Below, piece after piece: positions 25,812 through 38,781 of a stretch of 64,000 nucleotides of DNA. The stretch comes from an uncultured Candidatus Rokubacteria bacterium (GTDB taxonomy: Bacteria; Methylomirabilota; Methylomirabilia; Rokubacteriales; CSP1-6): contig CAVWWD010000007.1 in NCBI GenBank assembly GCA_963758635.1, forward strand, positions 160,001 to 224,000, in the 5' to 3' direction. The translations under genes and the position numbers were made by a program. Numbering within the stretch: the first letter of the stretch is position 1; each line of letters opens with the position of its first letter. The notes beneath the pieces were generated by a model. It saw nothing but the letters and a program-made list of their open reading frames with translations, did not search any database and was not told the DNA's origin.

Positions 25812-25929
25812 CCCTCTCCCTTCGAGGGAGAGGGCCGGGGTGAGGGTCGGTGGCACTATCTCACGGCGAGACTGTCCGTGTGCTTGCGCGACCGCCCCTC
25901 ACCCTGCCCTCTCCCCAAAGGGGAGAGGG
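25812..25929. repeat. REP-like paired palindromic element (intact copy)
   Basis: CCCTCTCCC-ttcga-GGGAGAGGG-CCGGGGTGAGGG ... CCCCTCACCCTG-CCCTCTCCCC-aaa-GGGGAGAGGG; an inverted homologue starts at 36008. Confidence 0.9.
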
Positions 25930-36007: not shown

Positions 36008-36124
36008 CCCTCTCCCCTCCGGGGAGAGGGCAGGGTGAGGGGCGGTCGTACCACCGCGCCGGGTCGCCCGCCGAGGGTCGATCGTCGAGGTGGCGCCACC
36101 GACCCTCACCCCGGCCCTCTCCCT
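36008..36124. repeat. REP-like paired palindromic element, left part (interrupted by the IS)
   Basis: Arms match the reverse complement of 25812-25929; last hairpin stops at CCCTCTCCCT. Confidence 0.9.
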
Positions 36125-36157
36125 GCTCAGAAAATGACGGGTGAACACGGGCTCCTG

Positions 36158-37355
36158 TTAGGCAGCGGGTTCGAGCATTACGCGATAGCCCTGACGTTGG
36201 AGCAGCTCGACGGCGCGACGGGTGATGCGGTGAGATGGCGACGGTCGTAGTAGTCGGGGCCGGGGTCGCAGGAGCGACGCTAGCGAGGATGGATAGACCG
36301 CTGGGAGCATGGCATGGGCGACGGCGACGACAGCCTTTGTGCCCGATGGCGCTGATGCGGCGGTACGCGCCGCCAGGGCGCATTTGGTGCGGATGGCGGG
36401 CAGGGCCGCTTCGATGAGGGCATGCGCGACAGCGGTTGCCCTTCGAATCTTGCTGAGTGTGCTGACCACGCTCTGCCGATTGCCGGGGCAGAACCGACCA
36501 GCGGCGAGATGCCGGCACTGGGAAAGGGGCGCTGTCCAGCCCGATCCGCGAGGAGGACCTCCGCCGTGCGGCGAGCGATCCCCGGCACCGTGTCCAGCTG
36601 GTGCAGCTGGCGCGCGAAAGGGGCCAGGGCGTGTCGACCTCCGCGCTGACCGCGGCGATCGCCTCGTCCAGGTACTCCAGATGGGCTAACAGTTGCCCGA
36701 CAAGAAAGGCGTGGTGGGGCCGGAACCGCCCCGCGAGCGCTTGGCGCAGGGCAGCCAGCTTCTGCGCAACCGGCCCCGCGCCAGGTCGGCCAGCACCTCG
36801 GGATCGGTCGTGCCCTGCACCAACGCCTCCAGCATGGCGCGGCCGAGACCCCCAGGATGTCGGTGGCCACCGAGGCCAGCTAGATGCCGGCGTCCTGCAA
36901 CAGCTTGTGCAGGCGATTGGCCGCCCGCTGGCGCTCCTGGATCACCACCTTGCGGTGCCGCGTCAGATCGCGCAGCTCTCGAATCGCGGCGGGAGGCACG
37001 AAGCTGCCCCGCAGCAGCCCGTGCTCCAGCAGTTGCGCGATGCAGATGCAATCCAGCCGTCGGTCTACCGGCCGGGGACTTGCTTGATGTGGGCGGGATT
37101 GACCAGCAGGCACGTGCCGATCTCTTCGAGGACGTAGAACACGGGCTTCCAATACACGCCGGTGCTCTCCATCGCCACATCCGTGACGCCGTGCGCCTGC
37201 AGCCAGTCCCGCAACAACAACAACTCGGCCGCCATCGTCCCGAACGTGCGCACATGTTGCTCCCGCTCGCCCCGCGGGCCGGGCACGCGTACGCACGCGG
37301 CCACACTGTGCCGGTGCACGTCCAGCCCTGCGCAACGCTCGATCTGTCGCTCCAT
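36158..37355 (-). pseudogene. IS110 transposase/recombinase, many indels and an internal stop
   Basis: CAGLDVH, VAMESTGVYWKPV, VNPAHIKQVPGR, GLLRGSFVPP, LRDLTR, DTVPGI, FPSA, KAVVAVAH, LQRQGYRV across several frames. Confidence 0.9.
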
Positions 37356-37380
37356 CCCGCGCCTCCCCCCGGTCATAGTC

Positions 37381-37526
37381 GCCGCGGCCGGAGGAGCCTC
37401 CCTTTGCACGACTCTGCTCGGCGTGCTCAGACACGCAACAATGCGGGGTGCCGAAAGCTCCCACGTCAGACTGGAACCAGACTTGCCCCCGTACCATGGA
37501 GAGGGCGACGTTGCCCGGCCCGCGGC
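37381..37526 (-). ncRNA. Candidate IS110 bridge RNA
   Basis: Non-coding end upstream of the transposase; -10-like TACCAT (37539-37534); closing stem GCCGCGGGCCGG/CCGGCCGCGGC; internal segments match target and donor junction flanks. Confidence 0.75.
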
Positions 37527-37574
37527 TGGCGCGATGGTAGCCCTTTTCATGCTGCAGGGTGCGCCTCGGCAGCT

Positions 37575-37587
37575 GGAAGGGAGAGGG
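37575..37587. repeat. Displaced right arm of the interrupted REP-like hairpin
   Basis: GGAAGGGAGAGGG; its GGGAGAGGG pairs with CCCTCTCCC at 36115-36123. Confidence 0.88.
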
Positions 37588-37589
37588 GG

Positions 37590-38781
37590 TGTAGAACAGC
37601 GGGCTGTTCGAGGGGAGGCCGAGGACGGTGCGGCCGACCGCCTCGTAGTTCACGAACTGGAGCTGGTTGTGGCGCGTGACGACCTCGGCGTCGCGCGCGT
37701 AGCGCTCGAGCGGGCTCGACGTGAAGATCGACGTGGTGCCGGCGGTCGCGCACACCATGTGGGTGGCGGCGGCCGCGCTCTGCGCGGCGTGGGTCATGGC
37801 CAGGCGCAGGTCGGCGCGCTGGCGCTCCGTGACGGGCTGCGCGGCGAGCACGGTCTGCCACATGTCCGCGACCACGTCGAAGAGGAGCGCCCGCCCCGAG
37901 CGCAGGATGGCCTCGGCCTCGCCGATCTTCGCCTGCACGATCGCGCGATCGCGCAGCAGCTCCGAGGACGAGCGCGGCACCTTCACCTGCGCCAGCTCGA
38001 CGAACGCGTCGATGGCCGCGCGCGCCACGCCCAGGCCCACGCAGCAGAAGCCGCAGCCGGCGAGGTCGAAGCCGTGCATGCGGTTCATCGGCCCGGTGAT
38101 CCGCGCGCGACGGTCGAGCGCCGAGAACGTCCGCTCCTCGGGCACGAACAGGTCCTCGACCTCGATGTCGTGGCTGCCCGTGCCGCGAAGCCCGCTCACG
38201 TTCCACGTGTCGATGATCCGCGCCTGGGCCTTCGGGTAGAAGTAGGCGATCCGCACCTCCTGCTCGCCGTGCGGGGTGAGCCGCGGCGTGTCGCCGTCGA
38301 ACACCTTGCACGCCCCGTGGAGCGCGGACGAGTGCATGCACCCGCTCGCGAAGAACCAGTGCCCGGTGACCCGGTAGCCGCCGGACACCGCCACCGCGCG
38401 GCCGCGCGGGTTCGCGGACCCGGCGGAGATGCCCACCGGGTCGCTGAAGAAGATCTCGCGCCGCACGTCCGGAGCGAACTGCGCGCTCTGCCGCAGCGTG
38501 TTGATCCCCATGGCGAGGCACCAGCCCGCGGACCCGTCGGCCCGCGCGATCTCCTCGATGACCTGGAGCGTGGTGACGACGTCGGCGCCGAGCCCGCCCT
38601 CGCTCTCGGGCAGGGCCACGCGGAAGAGCCGCGCCCGCGCGATCTCGGCGACGAGGGCGGGGGGAAGCTGGCGCGTCGCCTCGATCTCCTCGGCCGCCTC
38701 GCGGACGCGGGGCGCGAGGGCTCGCGCCACCTCGAGCGGCCGGGCGGAGGCGGGGATACGCGCGCCGATCTCGGTCACCAT
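37590..38781 (-). CDS. Acyl-CoA dehydrogenase-family flavin-dependent hydroxylase (3' end approximate; no stop seen)
   Basis: ARADGSAGWC, GHWFFASGC, TWNVSGLRGTGSHD, LERYARDA; frame continues into the IS. Confidence 0.85.

Follow-up and report, generated by a model that had tools for sequence, protein, structure and literature searches.

A long-recombinase IS110 element in a BoxC repeat of a Rokubacteria genome: bridge RNA of mirror polarity and a possible fold-back donor

Among the described systems closest to the element reported here, IS621 has a DEDD + Ser recombinase, an upstream two-loop RNA, a CT core with a fixed T, handshake guides and an extragenic-repeat target (Durrant 2024, PMC11208160; Hiraizumi 2024, PMC11208158). 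These features are shared by our element, which differs from IS621 as described there in the length of the recombinase (409 versus 328 aa, an 80-residue extension), in a mirrored guide order, in a left donor guide that misses the core-adjacent end and in the likely use of an internal rather than a junction promoter. ISPpu9 of Pseudomonas putida belongs to the IS110 group and, like our element, has an upstream non-coding region and AG ends on the transposase strand (PMC12288879). It is driven by a strong internal promoter, a likely counterpart of which occurs here, targets a REP and carries a conserved palindrome ~7 nt inside the left end, the role of which was left open by its authors (PMC12288879). 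The IS1111 seekRNAs (Siddiquee 2024, PMC11187229) resemble our element in their top-strand-first order and subterminal inverted repeats; in that report the top-strand-first order is assigned to IS1111 and the opposite order to IS110. Copying-out of the top strand into single-stranded circles, a feature we propose for our element, has been reported for IS621 and CazIS110-1 (10.1101/2025.10.25.684509) and in a preprint on half-match recombination by IS621 (10.64898/2026.08.31.748434); in both preprints the left donor guide is assigned to the bottom strand, and no folded donor is described in the available text of either. For ISPpu10 (10.64898/2026.03.19.712850), DNA secondary structure was described as a second recognition layer at a repeat target; there, the core is CT and the fold lies in the target, whereas in our element, as proposed below, the fold would lie in the donor.

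The window (i.e. the whole stretch of 64,000 nucleotides analysed from an uncultured Candidatus Rokubacteria bacterium) had been interpreted in a sequence-only reading as containing an IS110 element inserted precisely at a CT in the loop of a palindromic repeat. Insertion of an IS110 element into such a repeat is by itself ordinary. Both cores were confirmed at the positions assigned by this reading, with a left junction of CCCTCTCC-CT-GCTCAGA (CT at 36123-24) and a right junction in which CT at 37573-74 is followed by GGAAGGGAGAGGG; the proposed non-coding lengths of ~217 bp before and ~33 bp after the transposase also hold for the sequence as assembled (Table 1). Family membership was borne out by the PF01548 domain, the 2-nt core and the two-loop RNA. 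As is characteristic of IS110, the element lacks terminal inverted repeats and has a 2-nt core at both ends. The direct repeat at the window insertion is CTG. Across the family the core consists of 2 nt followed by a variable base: of 24 guide classes, 20 have AG on the transposase strand and four have AA; on the top strand the first letter is C or T and the second a fixed T, as in IS621. An actinobacterial branch (L146, L147, L149, L151, L152, L156, L162 and L170) exhibits an apparent CA top-strand core (i.e. TG on the transposase strand), which breaks the rule of a fixed second T.

Table 1. Positions of the repeat, element, gene and RNA features within the window
Feature	Position	Strand	Remark
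Inverted pair of BoxC/triplex repeats	36008..36124	.	Target's left half formed by the second unit (36103-36124)
IS110-family element including both CT cores	36123..37574	-	Core is AG on the transposase strand; placed from copies and contigs
Short 3' end, 33 nt	36125..36157	-	GCTCA at 36125-29 adjoins the core; read by the right donor guide
3' end, GAAAAT, right arm of the outer stem	36130-35	-	
DEDD recombinase gene, 409-aa type	36158..37355	-	PF01548; NF033542; broken as assembled
Long 5' non-coding end	37356..37572	-	217 nt as assembled; contigs add ~10 nt
3' arm of donor loop, CCGAGC-AG + handshake AG	37412..37421	-	Pairs with CT-GCTC
5' arm of donor loop, CACCCCGC	37443..37450	-	Slot of IS621 A123-C130
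3' arm of target loop, GTTCC-AG-TC	37469..37477	-	Pairs with CT-GGAA; handshake guide in the final 2 nt
5' arm of target loop, CCCTCTCCAT	37496..37505	-	Same sequence as the 8 nt preceding the core on the + strand
TACCAT, -10-like hexamer just before the bridge RNA	37534..37539	-	Putative internal promoter
GAAAA, left arm of the outer stem	37544..37548	-	Subterminal inverted repeat, ~33 nt from the core in relatives
Internal motif CACCCTGCA	37553..37561	-	Same-sense repeat of the left donor guide, 8/9
Left-end DNA hairpin, proposed inner stem of a fold-back	37560..37571	-	Shortened in this assembly
Right half of the interrupted BoxC hairpin, GGAAGGGAGAGGG	37575..37587	+	

Alignment of the flanks of other copies had been suggested as a check on these boundaries. 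A second copy in the same genome (C12:228401-229480) is 95% identical and has the same right end at the same position of the repeat, indicating that the window insertion is beyond chance. Approximately the first 400 nt are missing from this copy, which is bordered on the left by the same repeat arm. At this point (G000:C12:228380-228401) the repeat arm joins the middle of the transposase gene directly, with neither core nor non-coding end, reflecting either a real deletion or an assembly collapse. Both junctions were also crossed, into the same BoxC repeat, by short-read Logan contigs, namely X1 contigs spanning 36099-36382 and 37439-37588, an X2 contig (36115-36492) and an X3 contig (37435-37587); these derive from three runs in two studies and have flanks of only 8-24 nt, below the 31-nt bridging rule. 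The insertion in a BoxC loop is real, precise and that of an IS110-family member. When 250 further genomes from the phylum, many of them incomplete, were searched for the same right junction, a single match was obtained, with one mismatch (G231). No empty orthologous site was found among five homologues of the upstream gene, all of which have different downstream DNA. Among relatives, L045 carries a further 5' end behind its 3' end, forming a clean right-end/left-end junction in tandem, and so does L267, with ~12 nt between. The right junctions of L033, L036 and L093 contain an extra CAG between the right end and the guide-matched flank, possibly due to an offset strand transfer.

The target repeat conforms to the BoxC consensus (i.e. 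CCCTCNCCC-N3-6-GGGNGAGGG-N3-GGGNGAGGG) and is intergenic and often present as inverted pairs, in all of which it resembles the BoxC/PIT/TM repeats as described in PMC4666352. The genome contains 133 BoxC hairpins, 122 of them with the third arm, as compared to 12 in the shuffled genome. The repeat is classed as BoxC and not as a REP, the sequence fitting BoxC. REP sequences (RAYT-associated) are recognised by a terminal tetranucleotide tag and a linked RAYT gene. The hairpin had been called REP-like in the earlier reading, of a family differing from enterobacterial REPs; BoxC too occurs in enterobacteria, and its copy no. 12 in E. coli K-12 contains the same 14-mer as the target (Holder 2015, PMC4666352, Table 1). 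Intrastrand triplex formation by BoxC is described in that source solely for copies from E. coli and in vitro. The 14-mer of the exact empty target, CCCTCTCCCTGGAA, is found nine times elsewhere in the genome and not at all in the window; all nine of these targets (CCCTCTCC-CT-GGAA) sit in inverted pairs, and both insertions (i.e. in the window and C12) rebuild this same variant. Excision had been predicted to restore the hairpin found intact at 25812; this prediction did not hold, the repeat at 25812 being a member of the same family in inverted orientation with a CT-CGAA rather than a CT-GGAA loop. In the available text of PMC4666352 no link was found between BoxC and mobile elements, whereas here BoxC is a programmed target. 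BoxC-type sites are present, though unnamed, among the IS110 targets in the accessible part of Durrant supplement 5 (PMC11208160), which contains the window's repeat as a 31-mer, apparently centred on another CT. No paper naming BoxC as an IS110 target was found in a literature search largely confined to papers outside subscription. The linkers of paired BoxC units (36043-36102, 25840-25895 and nine other sites) vary in sequence but keep CGGTCG...CGACC ends, often contain AGCACG and GCGAG and are mostly spaced at 61-88 nt; a BoxC pair with its linker is possibly a mobile composite unit.

The transposase frame runs from 37355 to 36158 on the minus strand and exceeds the cut-off of PF01548, the N-terminal RuvC-like DEDD domain, in two natural pieces. 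As assembled, this gene is broken by many 1-nt deletions and by stops at 37067 and 36882. The window copy is missing 32 letters relative to the C12 copy, which is missing two relative to the window. P0083, a homologue with an intact gene, shares 87% identity with the C12 copy and scores 296 bits against NF033542. PF02371, the C-terminal Tnp domain with the catalytic serine, was detected in the C12 copy and in the 120 homologues listed, and was not detected by profile search in the broken window copy. The residues D12, E63, D99, D102 and S299 (i.e. DEDD + Ser) are invariant in alignment A1. At the listed frameshifts extra letters are present in the Logan contigs of four runs, and both window stops are sense codons in contigs (for 37067, in 4/4 runs). 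As contigs restore both letters and sense codons, most of these breaks look like consensus errors of the 12-contig assembly, with true decay as the alternative. Another PF02371 domain, at G000:C7:45320-45571, lies in an 857-aa open frame with no match to the proteins of this clade.

The contigs also bear on the left end of the element. The X3 contig contains eight extra letters within 37563-37572, and X1 exhibits 10 gaps over the same positions and shares the two listed inserts. With the inserted letters, the 5' end starts AG-TC...CATG as in relatives. Thus the stretch CTCGGCAG is probably mis-assembled and the window copy short of letters at its 5' end. As a consequence of these extra letters, the circle junction that had been proposed from the assembled sequence is probably wrong on its 5' side; it also violates the handshake rule of the family (28/31; see below). 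Neither a circle joint nor an empty-site joint was present in the contigs of four runs, contigs being informative for presence only. An RNA segment, TTCGGCAC, was considered as a reader of the assembled left end and rejected, as it is conserved in relatives with differing ends and as the contigs contradict that end.

Guides were examined in relatives gathered by a homologue search from P0083 (254 loci, 237 with a match). The guide set comprised 114 candidates (at least 55% identity plus the window copy, duplicates dropped), of which 39 could be parsed at both ends and in both arms and yielded 24 distinct guide pairs; the ends were placed from end motifs, independently of the guides. The statistics behind the best explanation leave the window copy out, no claim was drawn from the unpublished genomes G009, G023, G094 and G135, L119 is in no guide count, and L028, L119 and L133 were excluded from the internal-motif and later analyses. 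For the 24 guide pairs, the 3' arm of the target loop matched the left flank at 3.92 of 5 positions as compared to 1.55 for shuffled pairs (0/10000), and the 5' arm matched the reverse complement of the right flank at 4.08 of 6 as compared to 2.29 (0/10000). Guides in the IS621 order were tried and rejected, at 1.42/6 and 0.83/5 being no better than chance. The two letters past the core in the 3' arm (i.e. the handshake) equal the first two letters of the element, the second letter agreeing in 28 of 31 cases versus 12.5 for shuffles; this is a mirror image of the handshake rule of IS621. The window's handshake guide reads TC, which agrees with the contigs and disagrees with the assembly. For the right donor guide, a match to the right end of 6.5/7 was obtained versus 5.36 (12 pairs; 0/10000). 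The RNA scaffold was supported by covariation, with two-sided changes in nine of 21 pairs (0/500); single-sequence RNA folding was no better than shuffles (z -0.39) and Rfam gave no match at the gathering score. At 37497, an A of the target guide faces the core C, in the X1 and X3 contigs as well as in the window, and mismatches at the core also occur in L043 and L105.

These comparisons show the scaffold of the RNA, the two target guides, the handshake bases and the right donor guide to be of mirror polarity, and the steps of the best explanation up to and including this polarity are very probably correct. The CT strand, antisense to the transposase, is assigned as the top strand because the target guides, right donor guide and handshake fit only in this way. 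The sequence-only observation that CT reads on the strand opposite the transposase was sustained and is explained by the mirror order of the bridge RNA. The RNA lies upstream of the recombinase, as in IS621-type elements; the other IS621-type arrangement, with the bottom-strand guide first and a CT core on the recombinase strand, is absent. The top-strand match precedes the bottom-strand match, as in IS1111, whereas the IS1111 features of a long downstream non-coding region, a transposase of 330-350 aa and 11-13 bp subterminal repeats 7 and 3 bp in are missing. In comparison with the IS1111 elements described in PMC11187229, the RNA is upstream rather than downstream, the transposase is longer and the repeats are ~6 bp long, lying 5 and ~33 nt away from the core, as compared to 11-13 bp at 3 and 7. 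The element is therefore neither wired as IS621 nor an IS1111 member.

Expression of the bridge RNA is likely to be driven by an internal promoter and not by a junction promoter. A TAnnnT hexamer was present in 52 of the 77 relatives with the anchor; a strict sigma-70 promoter scan and a terminator scan found none. The element lies directly behind a co-oriented flavin monooxygenase gene, such that read-through could also supply the RNA, and supply by read-through has been shown for IS621 in the available text of PMC13626964. The monooxygenase gene ends TTC TAC in the window (37589-37594, minus strand) as compared to TTC TAG in 5/5 homologues, with the result that its frame runs into the repeat and element; either this is an error or the stop was lost to the repeat.

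The left donor guide behaved differently from the other guides. Its slot lies between a conserved GG and AU, matching A123-C130 of IS621, and was examined in a donor-arm set of 186 loci (at least 45% identity), of which 104 were parsed, giving 86 distinct loci and 38 with distinct arms; left ends in this set were placed from the target guide and not the donor arm. The IS621 placement failed, the guide matching the seven bases beside the core at 1.25/7 over 80 rows, with sister pairs giving four for, four ties and six against. These seven bases vary freely. Instead, the slot repeats, in the same sense, a motif located ~19-27 nt inside the left end behind a conserved hairpin, with a match of 6.38/8 versus 4.98 for the 38 distinct arms (0/20000). 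No signal was obtained for seven control placements. A third partner for the 5' donor arm was sought and not found in the left end (reverse complement), the 5' and 3' parts of the RNA, the target loop, the gene start and the element's 3' end. Among 14 disjoint sister pairs, 11 were for the arm-motif match, two were ties and one was against; shuffling restricted to clusters gave 0/10000 at each of the cut-offs of 55, 60 and 65%. Concerted changes of arm and motif were observed in separate clades (i.e. CACAT, CACAC, CACAAC, CACCA and TGCC). Per-position tree tests with independent pairs comprised 3-6 pairs and were not significant, with position 6 mixed, and in the closest relatives of the window the match usually requires a 1-nt bulge. 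Seven plasmid copies of the same clade, fetched afterwards and scored by eye, gave four clear matches (L259, L260, L261 and L265), two weak ones (L258 and L266) and none for L267; three plasmid elements at ~34% identity have a different scaffold and were not parsed. L261 is ISArsp3, the closest ISfinder name among those seen (46.5% to P0083), which by eye shares the scaffold, mirror order, hairpin, motif (6/9) and outer arms and differs in target.

The motif is flanked by two putative stems. Between the core and the motif is a hairpin of ~6 bp, which lies above its own shuffled mean in 84 of 86 relatives. Behind the motif, GAAAAT is complementary to ATTTTC located 5 nt inside the right end; the outer arms are complementary at 6.30/8 versus 5.86 (n = 64; 0/20000), and compensated variants occur in L113, L105, L062, L114 and L182. 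Were the CT strand of the circle junction to fold, one side of the bubble would span 13-14 nt (48/62) and the other 12-13 nt (47/62). With two guide-read stem bases, the folded-back side would be 14-15 nt, approximating the 14 nt of the IS621 site. DNA folding energies give no preference to the CT strand (-9.94 versus -9.73 kcal/mol), and many minimum-energy DNA folds lack the outer stem.

These features are best explained by insertion of the element at the CT of CCCTCTCC-CT-GGAA in BoxC by a long (~409-aa) IS110 recombinase having its bridge RNA encoded upstream. The top (i.e. CT) strand would be copied out as a single-stranded circle, the junction of which may fold on itself with the left-end hairpin as the turn and with the subterminal repeats pairing so as to close a bubble. 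The folded-back motif, and not the bottom strand, would then be the partner of the left donor guide, and CT-GCTC that of the right donor guide. As both donor guides would read one strand, the single-stranded circle could be a complete substrate. Integron attC sites are analogous folded single-strand substrates. A fold-back donor on the excised single strand, predicted from comparative data, is held tentatively as the most likely reading, its odds being about even. Its extension to a widespread clade of long IS110 elements with self-folded single-stranded donors, in which hairpin and subterminal repeats rebuild a 14-nt bubble, is slightly more doubtful than credible; relatives in the clade occur in Rokubacteria, Actinobacteria, Acidobacteria, Firmicutes, Chloroflexi and Betaproteobacteria. 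A single-stranded donor of CazIS110-1 was reported to be ~20-fold worse at the LD-RT junction, which requires the left donor guide (10.1101/2025.10.25.684509). A fold-back would lift a handicap of this type as the partner of the left donor guide would lie on the same strand. In ISPpu9, mutation of a similar left-end palindrome did not stop circle formation according to PMC12288879, indicating that the hairpin is not needed for excision there. Neither a displaced left donor guide nor a folded donor was found described in the literature searched, which mostly comprised non-subscription papers.

An unlikely explanation, though the best surviving of the alternatives, is that the right donor guide, handshake and protein of a mirror-polarity RNA suffice to recombine an ordinary duplex donor by half-match, the 5' donor arm pairing with the motif for another purpose (e.g. 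an R-loop over the promoter). This is consistent with the reported recombination of IS621 from the right-donor motif alone (10.64898/2026.08.31.748434), with the position of the motif, ~23 nt before the conserved TAnnnT and where a -35 box for the -10-like hexamer is expected, and with the strong internal promoter of ISPpu9 and dispensability of its palindrome for excision (PMC12288879). A half-match would, however, leave unexplained the conserved hairpin, the compensated outer arms and the IS621-like 14 nt bubble lengths. The same pairing might alternatively arise by cruciform extrusion in a supercoiled double-stranded circle with no free single strand, as both strands fold equally well and double-stranded IS110 circles are reported in the sources available. 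This is improbable given that ~55 bp would have to open for only ~12 bp to be re-formed per strand and that single-strand excision products are reported in those sources. It is very unlikely that the likeness of arm and motif is a relic of an old short duplication, inherited by descent with no present pairing: relatives are not independent, the per-position tree tests lack significance and some copies match poorly, but the concerted changes arose in separate clades and sister pairs run 11:1. Finally, that the element has an IS621-like wiring with the junction first proposed, or that the whole insertion is an assembly artefact, is scarcely credible in spite of a copy full of indels and a second copy without its first 400 nt, since the IS621 order is at or below chance and contigs of other runs carry both junctions.

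The formation of IS110 circles is in dispute, with cutting-out through a Holliday junction set against single-strand copy-out. If the proposed fold-back of the donor is true, the ends of these elements would be built as one folded strand, and a single-stranded circle can be the true substrate for integration. Such donors would parallel the attC-type substrates of integrons in an RNA-guided system, and the unexplained palindrome of ISPpu9 would thereby acquire a role. Exact compensatory mutants are predicted, and the presence of the target site in E. coli K-12 makes the proposal easy to test. Guide prediction or engineering based on the IS621 rules would mis-assign the strand, ends and donor in this clade, and a recombinase that accepts single-stranded donors would be useful in genome editing.
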